From Bacillota bacterium (GTDB taxonomy: Bacteria > Bacillota > Clostridia > Christensenellales > CAG-138), in assembly GCA_016286445.1 (NCBI GenBank), contig JAEESS010000003.1, positions 23,990 through 87,989 on the forward strand: 64,000 bases of DNA. The letters run 5' to 3'. Positions 5,976 through 53,062 of this stretch are shown here, piece after piece; the first letter of the stretch is position 1, and each line of letters opens with the position of its first letter. The position numbers were made by a program, and so were the translations under genes. A model generated the notes under the pieces. It was not told the origin of the DNA, did not search any database, and saw only the letters and a list, made by a program, of their open reading frames with translations.

Positions 5976-6677
5976 ATGAAACGGTTTATTGCATGGATTC
6001 TGGTTTTTGTTTTTGCGATCGGTCTGCTCGGCTGCAGAACAGCGCAGCAAAACGATCGGAAAACGGAAGGAACGACGGATAACACGGCAGACACAGCGGC
6101 AAACGCTGAGCAGGAGCCCGTACAGGACGCTGTCGAAGACGCCGATACGCTGTTTACATTCGGCACCGTGAACGGCGATTCTTATGAAAGTCCGTTTCTC
6201 GGATATGGCGTCAAATTGGAGAATTGGACTTTCGCGGATCAAAAACGGCTTGCGGAGGTCAACAATTGGAACGAACAGTTCTTATCAACCGATGTTCAGG
6301 AGCTTATCAATCAAAGCGAAATGTTTACCGAAATGCTTGCGGAATCGGAAGACGGTACGCAGAATATCAATATTCAGTACCAAAAGAAAGCAATCTATAA
6401 GTCAATAAAAATGGATGCGATGATCGATATGATCATCCCGGAGATGAAGAATACGTTTGAGAAAGCCGGATATACGAATGTTGCCATGGAAAAAACGTCG
6501 GTTACACTGGGCGGGGACGTGTATCCGGGGGTCAACATCACCGGCGAGGTGTACGGCATTTCTGTTTTTCAGAGGCAGATATACATTCAGAAAGGGGAAT
6601 ATGTGGCTTTTATCACGCTGACCTGTTTTGTTGACAATTCGCTCGACAGTCTCGTCGCATGTTTCTATAAGCTTTGA
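5976..6677 (+). CDS. Lipoprotein of unknown function
   Basis: AGGAGG at 5965-5970 precedes the start. The signal peptide carries the lipobox AIGLLGC. I recognise no other domain. Confidence 0.6.
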   Translation: MKRFIAWILVFVFAIGLLGCRTAQQNDRKTEGTTDNTADTAANAEQEPVQDAVEDADTLFTFGTVNGDSYESPFLGYGVKLENWTFADQKRLAEVNNWNEQFLSTDVQELINQSEMFTEMLAESEDGTQNINIQYQKKAIYKSIKMDAMIDMIIPEMKNTFEKAGYTNVAMEKTSVTLGGDVYPGVNITGEVYGISVFQRQIYIQKGEYVAFITLTCFVDNSLDSLVACFYKL

Positions 6678-6695
6678 TATCCGCGCAGCAAAACA

Positions 6696-6724
6696 GGGGG
6701 CTGTCTCATGACAGCCCTCTTTTG
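6696..6724 (+). terminator. Rho-independent terminator
   Basis: GGGCTGTC (6698-6705) pairs with GACAGCCC (6710-6717) around a 4-nt loop, followed by TCTTTTG. Confidence 0.75.
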
Positions 6725-6747
6725 CTGCAGATCATTCAGGTAATTAC

Positions 6748-6848
6748 ATCTATATACTTATATTATCTATATAATTTAGATAGATATAAATTAGATAAAT
6801 ATAATTAGATCGATTTCATTATAAACAGATCAATATCATGATATTGAT
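6748..6848. repeat. AT-rich repeat block with a perfect 20-bp palindrome, upstream of ssnA
   Basis: ATCTATATA occurs twice. The motif AATTAGAT / ATTTAGAT recurs about every 14-16 nt. ATCAATATCATGATATTGAT (6829-6848) is a perfect palindrome. The flanking DNA is GC-rich. Confidence 0.7.
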
Positions 6849-6952
6849 ATACGACGCCGACCCGCAAAATCCTTTTTTTGAATTGTGAAACCTTTCCTGC
6901 TTTTTTCATAATTCGTCAGCGGGAGAACGGGGAAACTTCACCGTTTCACGGC

Positions 6953-6981
6953 TTGCGTTCCTTTGCAAAATCATGTATAAT
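6953..6981 (+). promoter_or_regulatory. Candidate promoter of the ssnA-ygfK-xdhD cluster
   Basis: TTGCGT (6953-6958), a 17-nt spacer, and TATAAT (6976-6981). The RBS GAGGGAG at 7002-7008 lies downstream. Confidence 0.45.
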
Positions 6982-7017
6982 ATATTCATAAATATTACAT
7001 TGAGGGAGTGTGGCTTT

Positions 7018-8346
7018 ATGATCCTGATCGGTAATGGCAGACTGCTGACGAGGAACGGCACGGAATTTTATGAAAACGGCGCGGTTGCGGTCGAGGGACG
7101 CTATGTGAAGGAGGTCGGCGAAACGGCAGCGCTTCGGGCAAAGTACCCGGACGCGGAATGGATCGACGCAAACGGCGGCGTGATCATGCCGGGTCTCATC
7201 AACATGCATAACCACATCTACAGCGCGTTCGCCCGCGGGCTTTCGATCCGCGGCTACAATCCGCATAACTTTAACGACATTTTGGAGGGCATGTGGTGGA
7301 AGATCGACCGCTGTCTCACCAAGGAAAACGATTTCTGGTCCGCAAAGGCGGTCTATGCCGACTGCATCAAAAACGGCGTGACGACCGTGTTCGACCACCA
7401 CGCAAGCTTCTTTGACATCCCCGGATCGCTCGATGAGATCTCCGAAGCCGCAAGGGAGTTCGGCGTGCGCACCTCGCTCTGCTATGAGGTAAGCGACCGC
7501 GACGGCGAGGAGAAGCGCATGCAGTCGATCCTCGAAAACGAGCGCTTCATTCAAAAAGCGGCGGCGGACGACAGCGACATGCAGAAGGGCATGATGGGTC
7601 TGCACGCGGCGTTCACGCTCTCCGACAAGACCTTGGAGGACTGCCTTATTCACGGCGGAAAGGAAGCGGGCTTCCACGTCCACTGCGCCGAGGGACCGGG
7701 GGATCTGCAGGATTCCTTGGACAAGTACGGCAAGCGCATCATCAATCGCTTTTACGACGCGGGCATTCTCGGGAACAAAACGCTTGCGATCCACTGCGTG
7801 CACATCAACAAGGCGGAAATGGAGCTTTTGAAGGCGACCGACACCGCGGTCGTGCACAACCCGGAATCCAACATGGGCAACGCAGTCGGCTGCGGTCCGG
7901 TCATCCATATGAATAAGCTCGGACTGCTTTTAGGTCTCGGCACCGACGGATACACGAACGACATGCTCGAAAGCTACAAGGTCGGCAACATCATCCACAA
8001 GCACCACCTCTGCGATCCGACGGTCGCGTGGGGCGAGATCCCGGATATGCTGTTCAACGGCAATGCGGCGATCGCGGGACGGTATTTCAAGGCGCCTCTG
8101 GGCGTTCTGAAGCCCGGCGCGTACGCGGATATCATCGTGACCGATTACGATCCGCTGACGCCGATGGACGGGAACAACGCAAACTCGCACATCCTCTTCG
8201 GCATGAACGGCAGAAGCGTCGTGACCACGATGTGCAACGGCAAAGTCCTGATGAAGGATCGCGAGCTTTTGGTCTGCGACGAGAAGGAACTCATGGCAAA
8301 GTGCCGCGAGAGCGCAAAGAAGCTCTGGGCGGCGGTGAACGCGTAA
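7018..8346 (+). CDS. ssnA: Amidohydrolase-superfamily protein of SsnA type (putative aminohydrolase)
   Basis: At 442 aa it is the length I recall for E. coli SsnA. The amidohydrolase metal motif PGLINMHNHIY is present. ygfK- and xdhD-type genes follow immediately. The track start at 6973 overlaps the -10 box, so I use 7018. Confidence 0.75.
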   Translation: MILIGNGRLLTRNGTEFYENGAVAVEGRYVKEVGETAALRAKYPDAEWIDANGGVIMPGLINMHNHIYSAFARGLSIRGYNPHNFNDILEGMWWKIDRCLTKENDFWSAKAVYADCIKNGVTTVFDHHASFFDIPGSLDEISEAAREFGVRTSLCYEVSDRDGEEKRMQSILENERFIQKAAADDSDMQKGMMGLHAAFTLSDKTLEDCLIHGGKEAGFHVHCAEGPGDLQDSLDKYGKRIINRFYDAGILGNKTLAIHCVHINKAEMELLKATDTAVVHNPESNMGNAVGCGPVIHMNKLGLLLGLGTDGYTNDMLESYKVGNIIHKHHLCDPTVAWGEIPDMLFNGNAAIAGRYFKAPLGVLKPGAYADIIVTDYDPLTPMDGNNANSHILFGMNGRSVVTTMCNGKVLMKDRELLVCDEKELMAKCRESAKKLWAAVNA

Positions 8347-14176: not shown

Positions 14177-16360
14177 ATGAAAAAACTTCTTGCAATCGTG
14201 CTGAGCATGATCATGCTCGCATCACTGCTGCCGCTGAGTCTGCATATAGCAAGCGCGGACGATCGTTATCTTGAAATTAATGAAGAAAACTTTCCGGATC
14301 CGAACTTTCGGCAAGTTATCATTGACGATCAGGAAGTCAGCGGCGGAGTCGGCGGTTATTATATGACCGAAGAACAGGTTCTTAAGGTAGAGGCTATCTA
14401 TTGTAACAGACATGAAATCAGTTCTGTAAAAGGGATAGAGCATTTTCCAAATTTAGGGCAGTTTGAATGTGTCGGTAACGCTATTACGGAGATAGATGTA
14501 AGCAATAATCCGAATTTGTATTACTTATCCTGTGACGAGAATCAATTAACGAAAATTGACGTCAGTAATAATCCGGCTTTGGAACAGTTATACTGTGGAA
14601 AGAATCAACTGACAATACTGGATGTTAGCAACAACCCGGTATTATATGCCTTATGGTTCATGCATAATAAGGTAACAAAGCTGGTATTGAGTGAGGATTC
14701 AGCATTGACGACTCTATATTGCACTGATAACATGCTGAATTCTTTAGACTTGAGCAATGCTCCGTTGTTGAAAATTCTTTTCTGTGAGAACAACCAAATG
14801 AAAAATCTAAATGTCAGCGGCAATCCGTTATTGGAACACATAGACTGCCGAGATAATGCGTTGACAGAATTAGATGTCAGCAAGTGTTCTGCGTTGGACT
14901 ATGTTACAGTCAATAACAATTTGCTGACAGAAATGGATGTCAGTAAGAATATCAATTTGGGTTGGTTGGAATGTACGAATAACTGCTTCACACATATAGA
15001 TGTAAGCAAAAACACAAAATTGGAAGATTTATTCTGTGATAACAATTTACTGACGGAATTGGACGTCAGCAATAATGCTGCTTTGACAGTTTTGTCGTGT
15101 GAAGGTAATCAGTTGACGGCGTTGGATGTCAGTAAAAATGAATCACTTAAAGACCTGTATTGTAAAAACAATCGCCTGACATGGCTTGATCTCACACAAA
15201 ATCCGAATTTGCATCCTCAACTTTATGAACAGACAATTGAGGATCAATTGGGTACGGCATACAGTACGACATATACCTATGATTTGGCACAGCTTGTTCC
15301 GAAAGAACTTCTGACAAATGTTGAACTACTGGATTGGGAGCATTCGTCTTTAGATACAGAAACCGGTATTGTGACTTTCGATACGGAAGTCAGTTCTTTC
15401 ATTTATGATTATGACACAGGAAACAGCTCGGGATATTTGTTGGGCACTTTGCGGGTCGAAGTACAAGTAGCTTTTGACCATGTCAGCATGCCGATTCCCG
15501 GATATGACGCAACGATCGAGTGGGACAGCAGAGACATTAAGTACAAGGGAAAGACACCCTATGTAATTGCGAACGGGAAAGCGCAGGAACCTCGGTTTAC
15601 CGTAAAAGATACTGACGGAAATGTGATTGATCCTGCAAACTATGATGGGGAGTTTTACGAAAATGTCAATGCAGGAACAGCAATTTTACTGGTAACGTTC
15701 AAGAATGAATATACCGGTCTTTGCTACAGTGTATTCAAAATCTACCTGCCGGCAACGTCGACCACTACTGTTGCGAACGTCAAGGATGGCATCAAACTCA
15801 CGTGGAGCAAGGTTCCCGGCGCGGACGGCTATGTGATCTATCGCAGAGCATGGAGCAGCACCACCAACGGCTGGACGGACTTTGTGCGCTGGAACAACAC
15901 GAAGGAGCTCAACTGGCTCGATACCAAGGTCTATGCGGGTACGCGGTATCAATACGGCATTAAGGCGTACTTCAACAAGCGTATCGATCCGGTTACCGGC
16001 GCAGAGATCGGCGGCAACGTCGGCGACAATTTCAACCTCGGCGAGGTCGGTCCGCTGAAGACGACCGTGCGTATCACCACCCGTACGCTGAACAGCGTGA
16101 CGGCGGGATCGAAGCAGATGACGGTGAAGTGGGGCGCAAGCTCGCAGTTCACGGGCTATCAGATCCAGTATGCGACGAACAGCGCATTCACGCAGAACGC
16201 GAAGACGGTGAAGATCACAAACCCGAAGACCGCGTCGACCGTGATCAAGAGCCTCCTGAGCGGCAAGACCTATTACGTCCGCATCCGTTCGTATCATGTG
16301 TTCAACGGCATGACCTACTTCGGCGAGTGGTCGAACGTCAAGAGCTGCAAGGTAAAATAA
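14177..16360 (+). CDS. Secreted leucine-rich-repeat protein with two C-terminal fibronectin type III domains
   Basis: It has a signal peptide, then about 12 repeats of 21 aa with the pattern LxxLxCxxNxLTxLDVSxNxx. Two Fn3-like modules follow (GIKLTWSKVPGADGYVIYRR.. and MTVKWGASSQFTGYQIQY..). Confidence 0.8.
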   Translation: MKKLLAIVLSMIMLASLLPLSLHIASADDRYLEINEENFPDPNFRQVIIDDQEVSGGVGGYYMTEEQVLKVEAIYCNRHEISSVKGIEHFPNLGQFECVGNAITEIDVSNNPNLYYLSCDENQLTKIDVSNNPALEQLYCGKNQLTILDVSNNPVLYALWFMHNKVTKLVLSEDSALTTLYCTDNMLNSLDLSNAPLLKILFCENNQMKNLNVSGNPLLEHIDCRDNALTELDVSKCSALDYVTVNNNLLTEMDVSKNINLGWLECTNNCFTHIDVSKNTKLEDLFCDNNLLTELDVSNNAALTVLSCEGNQLTALDVSKNESLKDLYCKNNRLTWLDLTQNPNLHPQLYEQTIEDQLGTAYSTTYTYDLAQLVPKELLTNVELLDWEHSSLDTETGIVTFDTEVSSFIYDYDTGNSSGYLLGTLRVEVQVAFDHVSMPIPGYDATIEWDSRDIKYKGKTPYVIANGKAQEPRFTVKDTDGNVIDPANYDGEFYENVNAGTAILLVTFKNEYTGLCYSVFKIYLPATSTTTVANVKDGIKLTWSKVPGADGYVIYRRAWSSTTNGWTDFVRWNNTKELNWLDTKVYAGTRYQYGIKAYFNKRIDPVTGAEIGGNVGDNFNLGEVGPLKTTVRITTRTLNSVTAGSKQMTVKWGASSQFTGYQIQYATNSAFTQNAKTVKITNPKTASTVIKSLLSGKTYYVRIRSYHVFNGMTYFGEWSNVKSCKVK
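14435..15220 (+). repeat. Degenerate 63-bp tandem repeats encoding the LRR array
   Basis: Twelve consecutive 21-22-aa units each end in (I/L)DV-S-x-N. The DNA is AT-rich; the single 60-nt line at 14521 counts 35% GC. Confidence 0.8.
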
Positions 16361-49097: not shown

Positions 49098-49934
49098 ATG
49101 AGAAAAGACGGAAGACGCGTCAAGACCGCGCAGCCGATGTACCAGGTCGCGGCGCACATCATGGATCAGCGCTGCGATTCCATGAACATGATGGAGGTCG
49201 ATATCCCGGTCGCGCCGATGCAGGCATACCTCAACAAAAAGCGCGCGGAGGGCAAGGAGTATTCGCATCTCGGGCTGGTGCTTTCGGCATATGTCCGCAC
49301 GGTTGCGGAGTATCCGATCATCAACCGCTTTGTCGTGAACAAGACGATCTACGCGCGAAACGAGATCGCGGTCGGCATGGTGGTCCTGAAGCCCGGCGAA
49401 ACCGAGGGCACGATGAACAAGATGCACTTCAAGCCGGAGTTTACGATCGACGATGTGCATCAGACGCTGGATCAATATGTGCAGGAAAACCGCGGGCAGG
49501 GCGACACCAATTCGACCGACGATCTCATCCGCAAGCTTCTGAAGATCCCGGGATTGTGCCGCTTCGGCGTATGCGTGTTCAAGGCGATGGATAAGTTCGG
49601 TCTGCTGCCGAAGAGCATCATCGACGCGAGCCCGTTCCACTGCTCAATGACGATCACGAACCTTGCGAGCATCCGAACGAACGCGATCTATCATCATGTC
49701 TACAACTTTGGCACGACGACGATGATCATGGCGATGGGCATCCCGCACGAGGTCCCGCAGCGGAGAAAGGGCGAGATCGTGTTCGAGAAGTGCATTCCGG
49801 TCGGCATCGTGATGGACGAGCGCGTCTGTTCCGGCTCGCAGTACGTCGTGGCAAGCCGCAAGCTGTTCAATTATCTGAAGCATCCGGAGCTCCTCGAAGT
49901 TCCGCCCGAAACGATCGTCGAGGATCTGCCGTAA
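49098..49934 (+). CDS. Stand-alone 2-oxoacid dehydrogenase E2-type acyltransferase catalytic-domain-like protein
   Basis: It has a CAT-like fold and no lipoyl domain. The segment GIVMDERVCSGSQYV aligns by eye with the E2 active-site block DHRxxDG, with Glu in place of the catalytic His. Confidence 0.45.
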   Translation: MRKDGRRVKTAQPMYQVAAHIMDQRCDSMNMMEVDIPVAPMQAYLNKKRAEGKEYSHLGLVLSAYVRTVAEYPIINRFVVNKTIYARNEIAVGMVVLKPGETEGTMNKMHFKPEFTIDDVHQTLDQYVQENRGQGDTNSTDDLIRKLLKIPGLCRFGVCVFKAMDKFGLLPKSIIDASPFHCSMTITNLASIRTNAIYHHVYNFGTTTMIMAMGIPHEVPQRRKGEIVFEKCIPVGIVMDERVCSGSQYVVASRKLFNYLKHPELLEVPPETIVEDLP

Positions 49935-49994
49935 GCTAGTGATAATTATAATAGGCTCTTTCCGTTGGGAATGAAATATACCAAGGGGATGTTT

Positions 49995-50030
49995 GGAAGG
50001 CTCTACGCGAGAGGCCTTCCATATTTATAT
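49995..50030 (+). terminator. Terminator-like hairpin at the left edge of the AT-rich island
   Basis: GGAAGGCTCT (49995-50004) pairs with AGAGGCCTTCC (50010-50020) with one bulge, followed by ATATTTATATT. Confidence 0.55.
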
Positions 50031-50055
50031 TGGGAGAGAAAGTACATAATACAGC

Positions 50056-50084
50056 TTGAAATAAGAATGTGTATTGAGTATAAT
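50056..50084 (+). promoter_or_regulatory. Near-consensus sigma-A promoter of the island gene
   Basis: TTGAAA (50056-50061), exactly 17 nt of spacer, and TATAAT (50079-50084). The TTG start at 50074 used by the ORF track lies inside this promoter. Confidence 0.6.
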
Positions 50085-50121
50085 CGAACTATCAAGTATT
50101 TCGTACAATAGACATGGGGGG

Positions 50122-51774
50122 ATGATGATGCTTCGTTTCAAGATTGATTATCTGGGAAAAGAGTTTATGATACCGCTTGAAGTAACCGAATTTGTACAAT
50201 ATAGCAATAAATATATGCCATTCCACTTAATGATGCTTGAACCGCTGAGAGCCTATCTTAACTCAAAGGAAAAGGGTTTTGACGTTATAGATTGGAGAAC
50301 CGTATTCACACCAATTATCCAAGAGATTATTCAAAGATTATCTGAGCACAGCATTTATAATATTACAGTTTCAGATTTTATTGAAAATAATATCCGCTTT
50401 ACTCGTTTACTAGAAATCAATAATGAATGCGAAGAACAGGCAAGGAGTATTTTACGTAAAGCCTATGATAATTATATGAGTCAATTTCAAGATGCATACT
50501 CTAGGGCAACCTCAAGGGTAACAGGGACAGGCACAAGCGTGTATACCAGCGATCCTTTGGCTTATTTGGTTTTCGCAAATAGAGAAAGCAATGAAATCAA
50601 TAGACAGATAATACAAGCAAAGATTGAATACAATAATGCAATTGAAAGGCTAAACAAGGATAATAGCAATTGGCTTGATTCACAAATGTCGGAACTAAGA
50701 TTAAAAAGGTATTGGCCTGCCTGTATGAAAGCCGTTGATGATTTCTCCAAGCAGGTTTTCAAAACAATAATCGAATCTTTAAATGGCGCCGGAGTATTTA
50801 ATTACAACGCAATTTGTCATTATAATATAGATAGATCTACTGAGATCCTTAATAATATTGATCTTGTGAGCGATAAGAAACGCGTCGTTTTGGAAGCATT
50901 TAGCATTTGTCCTTTTAACGAAATGGTTTTTGCAAAAGCGTTAGAAATAGGACTTATTGATAATCATTTTATTGAGACGATGGAAACTATTGGATTCAAA
51001 GTATCAAAAGAGGAGATGATTAGCGCCTGCAAGAGAATGGGCACGACAGATAATATTAAATCGGTGATAGAATCCATAGCCAATAGATTTGATATAGAAA
51101 TACAAGATCTGACTTACGAGGTTCTTTCTGAGAGAGCACAACAAATAAAAGATAGTTATTTAGAAATAGACAGCCTTTGTTATGACGATAAAGAACTGAA
51201 TGCATGGATAAGTAATCACATTTCAGCAAATGGAAAGCTCTTTGCGGAAACTGAATCAAACAGCATTCGTGAGGAGATCAAGCAATTTGTTCTTGAGAAG
51301 CTTCCCCTTGATGTATTGGATCAATTACTTGATAACGGAATTCAATTAGCAGAATTCGAGGGCTGTCAAATCAGCAACACAATACAGAAGAACACAGAGG
51401 AACGTATGTTCGATAGGCTAATTCTATACCAAGGGAAGGTAAAAAGTGTTGTTGATTCGTGCATGATAAAACTAGAAGAAATACAGAGCAAGATAACAGC
51501 ACGAAAGGACAGAATCCGAACCATTAGTAACGAAGAAAAGAATTATAACACACAAAAGGGAGAATTAGGATTGTTTGCTTTGTCTGAAAAAAGAGCGTTA
51601 GCTAAAAGAATACTGGACTTACAATATGAGCACGATGTTGTCACAAAGGAATTAGTACAGCTCTCTATAAAGAAGAAAGCATTAAGAAAGGAGATGGATT
51701 CGGTTCTTTCTTTGCCTACTCATATTGTTAAGAGTAAACAGAAAGAAGAGTTTGAAGTAAAGAAGTTTTATTAA
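50122..51774 (+). CDS. Hypothetical protein (550 aa), AT-rich orphan with no recognisable domain
   Basis: It is a long uninterrupted ORF in about 32% GC DNA. It starts with a triple ATG at 50122-50130 preceded by GGGGGG. I find no P-loop, nuclease, RT, TM or signal-peptide motif. It is Lys/Glu/Ile/Asn-rich with a likely coiled-coil C-terminus. Confidence 0.75.
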   Translation: MMMLRFKIDYLGKEFMIPLEVTEFVQYSNKYMPFHLMMLEPLRAYLNSKEKGFDVIDWRTVFTPIIQEIIQRLSEHSIYNITVSDFIENNIRFTRLLEINNECEEQARSILRKAYDNYMSQFQDAYSRATSRVTGTGTSVYTSDPLAYLVFANRESNEINRQIIQAKIEYNNAIERLNKDNSNWLDSQMSELRLKRYWPACMKAVDDFSKQVFKTIIESLNGAGVFNYNAICHYNIDRSTEILNNIDLVSDKKRVVLEAFSICPFNEMVFAKALEIGLIDNHFIETMETIGFKVSKEEMISACKRMGTTDNIKSVIESIANRFDIEIQDLTYEVLSERAQQIKDSYLEIDSLCYDDKELNAWISNHISANGKLFAETESNSIREEIKQFVLEKLPLDVLDQLLDNGIQLAEFEGCQISNTIQKNTEERMFDRLILYQGKVKSVVDSCMIKLEEIQSKITARKDRIRTISNEEKNYNTQKGELGLFALSEKRALAKRILDLQYEHDVVTKELVQLSIKKKALRKEMDSVLSLPTHIVKSKQKEEFEVKKFY

Positions 51775-51803
51775 AAGAGCTGTCGAACAAAGGGGAGAAC
51801 TGT

Positions 51804-51828
51804 AGCCCGCTTTTTGCGGGCTTTTTTG
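51804..51828 (+). terminator. Rho-independent terminator of the island gene
   Basis: AGCCCGC (51804-51810) pairs with GCGGGCT (51816-51822), followed by TTTTTT. Confidence 0.85.
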
Positions 51829-51908
51829 ATACCCGGAAAGCGAGCGGTCCGAACGGGATCTGCAATGTAAAGTATATGAAAAGATTCCCTTTTTCTTCTA
51901 TATTAATA

Positions 51909-51937
51909 TTTACAAAACGGGACGGATGTGCTATAAT
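51909..51937 (+). promoter_or_regulatory. Candidate recF promoter
   Basis: TTTACA (51909-51914), a 17-nt spacer, and an extended -10 TGcTATAAT (51929-51937). Confidence 0.6.
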
Positions 51938-51967
51938 CATATGGTAAATTCTGAGGGGAGTACGCCC

Positions 51968-53062
51968 ATGCGGATTAAGGGACTCGAACTGCATAGATTC
52001 CGGAATTATACGGACCTTTTGCTGTATCCGGAGCCGGGGCTCAACATCCTTTCGGGGCTCAATGCCGAGGGAAAAACCAACGTGTTGGAATCGATCTTTC
52101 TGTGCGCGCTGGGCAGAAGCCACCGGACCCCGCACGACGCCGAGCTTCTGATGGACGGGATGACGGACGGCAGCGTTGCGCTTTCTTTGGAAACGCGCGG
52201 CGGGTCGCGCTCGATCCGGATCGAACTTGTCCGCGGGGAACGCAAGCGCGTCTATCTGGACGAGGCGCCGCTCTCCCGCTCGGGCGAGCTCATGGGGTGT
52301 CTGAACGTCGTGATGTTCTCACCGGAGGATCTTGCGCTCGTCAAGGACGGTCCGCAGGAGCGGCGGCGGTTTCTCGATATGGAGTTAAGTCAGCTCAAGC
52401 CCTCGTACTACTACACGCTGCAGCAGTACAATCAGGCGCTGAAAAGCCGCAACCTTCTTTTGAAGGAGGATCCGGTGCCGTACGACATGATCGAGCTTTG
52501 GGACGAGCAGCTCAGCAAGCTCGGCGCGACGATCATGGAAAACCGCGCGGCGTTTATTGAGGAGCTTTCCCAAAATGCGCATACGCTGCACGCGAAGATG
52601 AGCGGCACGAAGGAGATCCTTGAAACGGTCTATGAGCCGACGATCCCGGTGCAGGATTACGACACGATGCGCGAAACGCTGACGGTGCAGCTCGGCGAAC
52701 GGCTCGAACGGGACGTTTTCCGCGGGTTCACCTCGGTCGGACCGCATCGGGACGATCTGGGGCTGCTGCTGAACGGCAGGGATCTTCGGATCTACGGTTC
52801 GCAGGGACAGCAGCGGACCGCGGCGCTTTCGCTGAAGCTTTCGGAGATCGACCTTGTCCGCAGGGTGCGCGGCGAACGTCCCGTGCTTCTGCTGGACGAC
52901 GTGTTTTCGGAGCTCGACGCGGAGCGGCAGGCAAGGCTTTTGGAGGTCGTTTCGGACTGTCAGACGTTTGTCACCTGCACGCATCTCGAAGAATTTGTGA
53001 AGGCGGGCGCCGTGCGCATGCAGGTGTACCGCGTATCCAACGGAAGGGTGGTGGAGGAATAA
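51968..53062 (+). CDS. recF: DNA replication and repair protein RecF
   Basis: GAGGGGAG precedes the ATG at 51968. Walker A GLNAEGKTNVLE, the signature region SQGQQRT and Walker B LLLDDV are present. Confidence 0.9.
   Translation: MRIKGLELHRFRNYTDLLLYPEPGLNILSGLNAEGKTNVLESIFLCALGRSHRTPHDAELLMDGMTDGSVALSLETRGGSRSIRIELVRGERKRVYLDEAPLSRSGELMGCLNVVMFSPEDLALVKDGPQERRRFLDMELSQLKPSYYYTLQQYNQALKSRNLLLKEDPVPYDMIELWDEQLSKLGATIMENRAAFIEELSQNAHTLHAKMSGTKEILETVYEPTIPVQDYDTMRETLTVQLGERLERDVFRGFTSVGPHRDDLGLLLNGRDLRIYGSQGQQRTAALSLKLSEIDLVRRVRGERPVLLLDDVFSELDAERQARLLEVVSDCQTFVTCTHLEEFVKAGAVRMQVYRVSNGRVVEE

Follow-up and report, generated by a model that had tools for sequence, protein, structure and literature searches.

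Accessory genes of bacteria can occupy hotspots between core genes, and a preprint on such hotspots describes, in the part of it that bears on the present case, variable islets which are swapped through their homologous flanks (bioRxiv 10.1101/2024.10.15.618418). Hotspot islets with candidate defence cargo are already known, and single genes for superinfection exclusion (Sie) or abortive infection (Abi) have been described from prophages. The C-type-lectin-like domain DUF6273 is a target of diversity-generating retroelements (DGRs) in phage receptor-binding proteins (PMC10743442, PMC11792537). Here we compare with these systems a locus from a rumen lineage of Clostridia/Christensenellales with a genome of about 60% GC, lying in a window of 64,000 nucleotides (the whole stretch of DNA that was analyzed, from contig JAEESS010000003.1). 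The spacer between a gene for a 278-residue protein and recF is a gene-exchange hotspot, and in the window it holds an AT-rich single-gene cassette which was almost certainly acquired horizontally. The encoded protein belongs to a family which, together with its fold and domain combinations, is undescribed in the libraries searched. A first-pass annotation, made from the letters of the window, had picked out the segment as a foreign transcription unit encoding an orphan protein, possibly of the anti-phage type.

The limits of the cassette were obtained by comparison with relatives. Using the 278-residue protein as query, the locus was retrieved from species-level genome representatives, which gave 18 metagenome-assembled genomes of related rumen Clostridia/Christensenellales with the shared gene order EamA, 278-residue gene, recF and RemA-like gene; the 278-residue gene is 80-95% identical in these 18 species. 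In 12 of them the site is empty, the 278-residue gene abutting recF across a spacer of only 163-179 nt, which is the outcome that the synteny check proposed in the first-pass annotation was meant to reveal. Because the same two flanking genes enclose an empty site in these 12 species, the segment is an acquired cassette, and the locus is composed as follows:

49098-49934, plus strand: upstream host gene, 278 residues, weakly similar to 2-oxoacid_dh acyltransferases (Pfam PF00198, E 1.9e-8)
49935-51803, plus strand: acquired AT-rich cassette, 1,869 bp (low GC, empty sites in relatives, junction alignment and blastn)
51804-51828, plus strand: native intrinsic terminator of the 278-residue gene, GCCCGC-loop-GCGGGC and T-run (terminator scan, fold z -2.8)
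51909-51937, plus strand: native promoter of recF, TTTACA-17-TATAAT, TG upstream (conserved in every relative with an empty site)
51968-53062, plus strand: recF, 364 residues, right-hand host gene of the hotspot (Pfam SMC_N and AAA_23)

When aligned, the empty sites present in succession the stop codon, about 10-14 nt, the GCCCGC-loop-GCGGGC hairpin with its T-run, about 60 nt, the recF promoter (TTTACA-17-TATAMT) and then a ribosome-binding site and ATG. The five relatives compared by blastn agree in their breakpoints: homology ends at 49934, the stop codon of the 278-residue gene and left edge of the hotspot, and restarts at 51804-51816, so that the foreign DNA is 49935-51803. The hairpin at 51804-51828, found at the same position in eight empty-site species, and the recF promoter at 51909-51937 are native, since both are present in empty sites. 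The insertion therefore lies between the stop codon of the 278-residue gene and the terminator of that gene, just upstream of the recF promoter. This overturns the earlier assignment of the hairpin to the cassette: it is the pre-existing terminator of the upstream gene, which now appears to serve the cassette gene as well.

Composition sets off the same segment, as had been noticed at first sight. GC falls from 0.54-0.65 to 0.33-0.38 over 49935-51803 and is about 0.60 again inside recF, and the open reading frame (ORF) of the cassette, with a GC at third codon positions (GC3) of 0.34 against 0.71-0.84 in the neighboring genes, is the strongest outlier of the 64-kb window. Integrase, transposase, inverted repeat and target-site duplication were all looked for in the window without any being found, in agreement with the first-pass annotation, and neither inverted nor direct repeats bound the insert.

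The age of the cassette gene can be judged from a second lineage (loci L002 and L003), whose flanks are 84-88% identical to those of the window and which carries at the same locus the only close homologue of the protein (P0002, 57% amino acid identity). Between the window and L002, the 278-residue gene shows 93% amino acid identity (synonymous divergence dS 0.52, non-synonymous divergence dN 0.047), recF 95% (dS 0.67, dN 0.045) and the RemA-like gene 88% (dS 0.60, dN 0.089), whereas the cassette gene, at 57%, has a saturated dS (proportion of synonymous differences, pS, 0.74) and a dN of 0.32. Because the synonymous sites of the cassette gene are saturated against a dS of 0.52-0.67 in the flanks, the two alleles split long before their hosts, and this divergence points to cassettes that were exchanged or re-acquired at the site, not vertically inherited. 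The earlier proposal of horizontal acquisition is thus borne out by the empty sites, by the shared breakpoints and by an allele older than the split of the hosts. Both alleles have an intact ORF, with a dN far below the saturated dS, and for these reasons the protein is under constraint and the gene, judged by its substitutions, functional at the level of coding constraint. Three further loci (L005-L007) match the window at 100% identity over 10 kb and show no within-lineage variation.

In L002 an insertion sequence (IS) of the DDE_Tnp_1/DDE_Tnp_1_6 type, with a GC of about 0.46 (L002:1685-~3500; also in L001, L003 and L004), sits exactly between the spacer of the 278-residue gene and the cassette allele. 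A mobile unit composed of IS and gene was considered for L001 and L004 and rejected: L004 lies wholly inside L002, and the differences of L001 are confined to the left side of the IS end, where its unrelated sequence indicates a repeat join or a rearrangement. Upstream of the allele, L002:3496-3580 resembles the native recF promoter and 5' untranslated region at L002:5614-5685 (GGCGG-TGTGCTAT-CT...ATG-TAA); the resemblance is borderline (score 48 against 31 +/- 6 for shuffles, z about 2.9) and may mean that the target region has been duplicated in part. The upstream region of the window cassette gave scores of 38 with the L002 upstream region and 27 with the recF promoter, not above the controls (shuffle means 31 and 26).

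Four different cargoes were found at the same spacer across species. An extracytoplasmic function (ECF) sigma factor with a partner of 270-298 residues bearing a hydrophobic segment occupies it in L008 (8838-10639) and L022 (8838-10531), and a minus-strand N-formylglutamate amidohydrolase (FGase; PF05013, 9e-48) in L009 (6243-7400) and L013 (8003-9190), both types of cargo having a near-host GC of 0.51-0.55. The hotspot of L018 (6508-6930) and L014 (8838-9221) holds a non-coding element of about 210 nt, in opposite orientations and with 81% identity, which had no match in Rfam at these two loci and no further copy among the loci retrieved. Like the window cassette, the cargoes of L008, L022 and L013 are bounded by the stop codon on one side and on the other by a GCCCGC-type hairpin that has been retained. 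In L018 the terminator hairpin (AAAAAGCCCGCGTTTGCGGGCTTTT) is present on both sides of the element of about 210 nt, as a perfect direct duplication of 24 nt, and because of this duplication the hairpin may be the insertion target itself.

Within the cassette, the following features were recognized:

50122-51774, plus strand: cassette gene, 550 residues, soluble, member of an undescribed family (ORF, homologues, model)
50056-50084, plus strand: promoter-like site of the cassette gene, TTGAAA-17-TATAAT (11 of 12 matches)
49995-50020, plus strand: hairpin GGAAGGCTCT-ACGCG-AGAGGCCTTCC followed by ATATTTATATT (minimum free energy -15.8 kcal/mol, z only -1.6)

The single intact ORF of 1.65 kb runs from 50074 (TTG) or 50122 (ATG) to 51774, and its start is, as first described, a triple ATG (50122, 50125 and 50128), placed behind a G-run ribosome-binding site at 50116-50121. 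The claim that the segment is a self-contained transcription unit is plausible for its beginning and fails for its end: TTGAAA-17-TATAAT is the best promoter-like site of the region, although the number of such sites in the AT-rich DNA does not exceed that of shuffled sequences (8 observed against 7.0 +/- 2.5 expected), and the cassette is probably transcribed from a promoter of its own and depends for termination on the native hairpin. The hairpin at 49995-50020 may act for the upstream gene in place of its native terminator; each of the other cargoes, that of L009 included, has its own hairpin right after the stop codon, the counterpart in the window being weak. A search of the cassette against Rfam gave no match.

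Two milder anomalies of composition were seen elsewhere in the window. At 14177-16360 (plus strand), an ORF of 727 residues with LRR_4 (8.7e-16) and fn3 domains has a GC3 of 0.54 and is split in composition, with a GC of 0.36-0.45 in its first 1.5 kb or so and of about 0.58 at its 3' end; it may be a surface-protein gene that is mosaic or was acquired in part. The second anomaly, at 5976-7050, consists of an ORF of 233 residues without Pfam match (5976-6677, GC3 0.56) followed by intergenic DNA of 0.33-0.35 GC (6600-7050).

The protein had been described as an orphan, and word-indexed searches with sequence and profile returned only the protein itself and its 57% relative. We reject this status on the strength of HMMER, run exhaustively against 1.84 billion representatives: the family comprises 328 clusters when the cutoff is E<=1e-3, of which 248 reach E<=1e-10 and 37 reach E<=1e-30, the clusters being defined at 50% identity and the figure of 328 being a lower bound for the size of the family. 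Scans with single proteins gave no match for P0166, another member, in IMG/VR, nor for the window protein in the JGI metagenomes, and locus searches seeded from alignments gave nothing for want of a sufficiently conserved stretch. The region common to the family covers residues 6 to 290 approximately and constitutes a cytoplasmic N-domain of about 290 residues. G135 (in an ITGSG..S loop), Q162, A166 and P264 are invariant in all 116 aligned sequences; C263, which belongs to a CP(Y/F)N motif, is invariant in an alignment of 45 sequences and conserved to 90% or more in that of 116, and 114 of 150 representatives contain CP[YFW]N. The window protein has every invariant position, and across the family alignment there is no conserved constellation of His, Asp or Ser suggestive of catalysis.

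Two architectures share this N-domain. The top 150 representatives include 59 soluble proteins (470-610 residues, like the window protein), 73 with one strong transmembrane helix at about residues 460-520, and 15 fragments. The soluble half of the family, window protein included, ends in a second long helical hairpin, and Pfam scans of the long members found TPR repeats past the transmembrane helix, several of these proteins ending in DUF6273 (E 1e-17 to 1e-25), SH3_3 or RHS. No DGR reverse transcriptase was found beside the two long-form loci inspected.

The first-pass annotation had recognized no motif in the window protein, and the protein matches no family of Pfam, NCBIfam or PHROG (best Pfam score 15.8 bits against a cutoff of 23.4) and stays below threshold for all Abi and Sie families of Pfam (Abi_2, AbiH, SieB and others). 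There was no Pfam match either to PspA/ESCRT-III or to TelA-like proteins, and the profile search of PDB sequences gave coiled-coil noise only (PspA at E 4.3, CdvA at E 0.09). PADLOC run over 45 family members yielded scattered matches, in one or two members each and at E>=1.6e-4, and no Pfam, PHROG or PADLOC family is common to these 45 aligned members. Weak matches of residues 43-86 to DUF7698 and phrog_21141 were dropped, as they were not reproduced in other members of the family.

AlphaFold2 gave confident models, both for the full-length protein with the family alignment (predicted local distance difference test, pLDDT, 91.3; predicted template modelling score, pTM, 0.71) and for the N-domain with 116 sequences (pLDDT 95.1, pTM 0.85). 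The protein had been expected to be all-helical, and the model is so except for an N-terminal beta-hairpin (residues 5-18). Very long helices (91-131 and 145-222, the latter of 78 residues) form an elongated helical bundle, followed by a compact helical sub-domain (236-404), by the second long helical hairpin (418-481/487-526), which has a conserved LGxFAFSKKKEL at its tip, and by a disordered tail. This hydrophobic tip (residues 483-494 of the window protein) sits in the soluble forms roughly where the transmembrane helix lies in the anchored forms, an overlap which we read as a positional coincidence and not as homology.

The surroundings of relatives were analyzed in ten contexts, eight of which were picked on contig size alone and two taken from IMG/VR, a viral collection and therefore a biased sample. 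The family gene is the sole cargo of a divergent tyrosine integrase in one case (P0016). In two others (P0166 and P0021) it forms the left edge of elements inserted behind greA-lysS and adjoins a divergent HTH_3 gene; downstream, one element has terminase, portal and integrase genes, and the other Bro-N, resolvase, HNH and Toprim genes. P0019 is located behind groES-groEL, where it adjoins a ribbon-helix-helix (RHH) gene; its element ends in Tn916-type Xis/Int. P0157 is found in a phage-like region that also encodes a CI-type repressor, HNH, resolvase and PBECR4. Defence genes adjoin two members: P0026 is followed by the S and M subunits of a type I restriction-modification (RM) system, GajA (4e-203), GajB (3e-119) and Eco57I, while P0190 has AbiH (7e-14) on one side and an integrase and an excisionase on the other. 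P0084 (L039:7792-12159), a DUF6273-bearing member of 1,136 residues, belongs to a three-gene islet: its start is overlapped by an HTH_26 gene, and an ORF of 242 residues follows it. The islet lies between rpsF-ssb-rpsR and rplU-rpmA and parallels the case of the window as an insertion of the family into a housekeeping neighborhood. A DNA scan of IMG/VR for the motif DK-x6-AF-xx-CP[YF]N gave four matches, all four true members (E 1e-137 to 3e-167), and one of the IMG/VR contigs has an Mrr_cat nuclease and a sub-threshold SieB-like protein as neighbors. In every context sampled the family genes have a GC of 0.30-0.40, even in hosts of 0.50-0.59 GC.

We regard the cassette gene as a candidate phage or mobile-element conflict gene, a role suggested by the integrases, element edges, helix-turn-helix (HTH) partners, Gabija, RM and AbiH genes around its relatives and for which the chances appear about even. 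The protein would be a stand-alone conflict factor of the superinfection-exclusion or abortive-infection type, and it would act non-enzymatically, by binding or oligomerizing on the cytoplasmic side of the membrane or close to it, and not as a nuclease, an NTPase or another enzyme. A non-enzymatic action is proposed because no catalytic motif is conserved, and an action near the membrane because half of the family is tethered by a transmembrane helix. A specific mechanism of membrane-proximal exclusion or abortive infection is, taken for itself, rather improbable. If the family does constitute a conflict system, it would be a defence or exclusion class without catalytic motif or analogue among solved structures, abundant in gut and rumen Firmicutes, which current defence catalogues cover poorly.

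Several results weigh against a conflict role. It is read solely from association with neighbors, in the ten contexts sampled, and cargo of mobile elements is not necessarily defence. The suggestion of a defence function made at the outset thus agrees with the surroundings of the relatives and finds no counterpart in a known defence family, a catalytic motif or a fold: the PADLOC check that had been proposed gave 0 families at E<=10 for the window protein (PADLOC-DB v2.0.0), and Foldseek with the AlphaFold models gave nothing significant, either in PDB (best E 0.05 for the full length and 0.14 for the N-domain, TM-score <=0.35 in either normalization) or in BFVD (best E 0.016, TM-score 0.13). 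A tblastn search of 50,697 phage genomes and 72,556 plasmids gave no match, and the window protein, as was noted from the start, has no transmembrane segment.

An extension of the conflict reading to the whole family is possible, although we hold it doubtful. The cassette gene would encode the soluble form of a new family of immunity proteins borne by mobile elements and without structural precedent. The cytoplasmic N-domain would be the effector or oligomerization module, and the anchored members would couple it through their transmembrane helix to extracellular binders, including hypervariable lectins of the DGR type. If true, the family would be an anti-phage receptor system that senses at the cell surface and may be hypermutable, and the soluble form would be its stand-alone relative in the cytoplasm. 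The anchored relatives with DGR-type lectins would then tie diversity-generating retroelements to an output module inside the cell, a connection so far hard to approach experimentally.

Other explanations differ in what the gene would do and for whom. The family may serve the mobile element itself, in entry exclusion, control of maintenance or induction, anti-defence or an addiction-type function, the copy in the window being stranded cargo. This seems unlikely to us, even though the gene is often at the very edge of prophages or integrative elements, is often adjoined by a small HTH or RHH gene, divergent or overlapping, and is in one case the sole cargo beside an integrase: it persists without an element backbone in the window and in L039 with a constrained coding sequence, a protein of 550 residues is large for a typical anti-defence protein, and the co-location with Gabija, RM and AbiH is what is usual for defence genes. 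Equally, the protein may be an envelope-associated scaffold or sensor for niche adaptation, involved in surface binding or cell-wall processes without any phage conflict, its soluble form being a cytoplasmic variant. The bitopic half of the family, with its extracytoplasmic TPR, SH3_3 (of the cell-wall-binding type), RHS and lectin-like DUF6273 parts, speaks for such a role, as do the ordinary genes (ECF sigma factor, FGase) among the other cargoes of the hotspot; against it stand the mobile elements and defence islands with which the family is consistently associated, the AT-richness across hosts and the lack of any envelope-targeting feature in the window protein, and we consider it improbable.

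That the cassette is a decaying foreign remnant or a chance frame without function is very improbable: the count of promoter-like sites is at the chance level for AT-rich DNA, but a frame of 550 codons in DNA of 35% GC is very unlikely by chance (a judgement and not a computed probability), both alleles are intact with a dN of 0.32 far below the saturated dS, and 328 homologous clusters, conserved motifs and models of pLDDT 91-95 speak for a real protein. A vertically inherited core gene of odd composition, for which the homologue at the same locus in the second lineage could be cited, is refuted for practical purposes by the empty sites, the gene being absent from 16 of the 18 species-level relatives retrieved, and by the saturated synonymous divergence of the alleles against a flank dS of 0.5-0.7.

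Returning to the candidate conflict gene, three known groups of proteins can be compared with it. As with the single Sie and Abi genes of prophages (lambda SieB, lactococcal Sie and Abi, AbiH), the family consists of a single AT-rich gene at element edges, near HTH repressor-type genes and integrases, with AbiH, Gabija and RM among its neighbors. It differs from them in two respects: the window protein resembles no Abi or Sie model, whether by sequence or by profile, and, unlike SieB or Sie, it has no transmembrane segment. The very long antiparallel helices with a beta-hairpin recall the alpha-pore-forming toxins ClyA, NheA, MakE and XaxA as well as BAR domains, which also appear among weak Foldseek matches of the N-domain; these matches are non-significant (E>=1.4, probability <=0.21, TM-score <=0.35 on target length) and serve as a lead only, and the hairpin of the window protein, in contrast to that of the ClyA type, is N-terminal and not hydrophobic. 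The long members of the family, which end in DUF6273 past a transmembrane helix and TPR repeats, are like bitopic surface proteins of the DGR-target type (PMC10743442, PMC11792537), whereas the window protein is without the DUF6273, transmembrane and TPR part altogether.

Finally, the locus itself is to be compared with the hotspots between core genes. It is unlike them in being tiny, since it comprises one spacer from stop codon to hairpin, in having no recombinase in the window and in receiving mostly ordinary cargoes such as the ECF sigma factor and the FGase. It is like them in that a fixed pair, the 278-residue gene and recF, brackets alternative cargoes with sharp breakpoints and with alleles much older than the divergence of their hosts. 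Whatever the function of the protein, the locus is a clean natural case of cargo exchange at a terminator-adjacent micro-hotspot beside recF, for which empty sites, four cargoes and two ancient alleles are all on hand for comparison.

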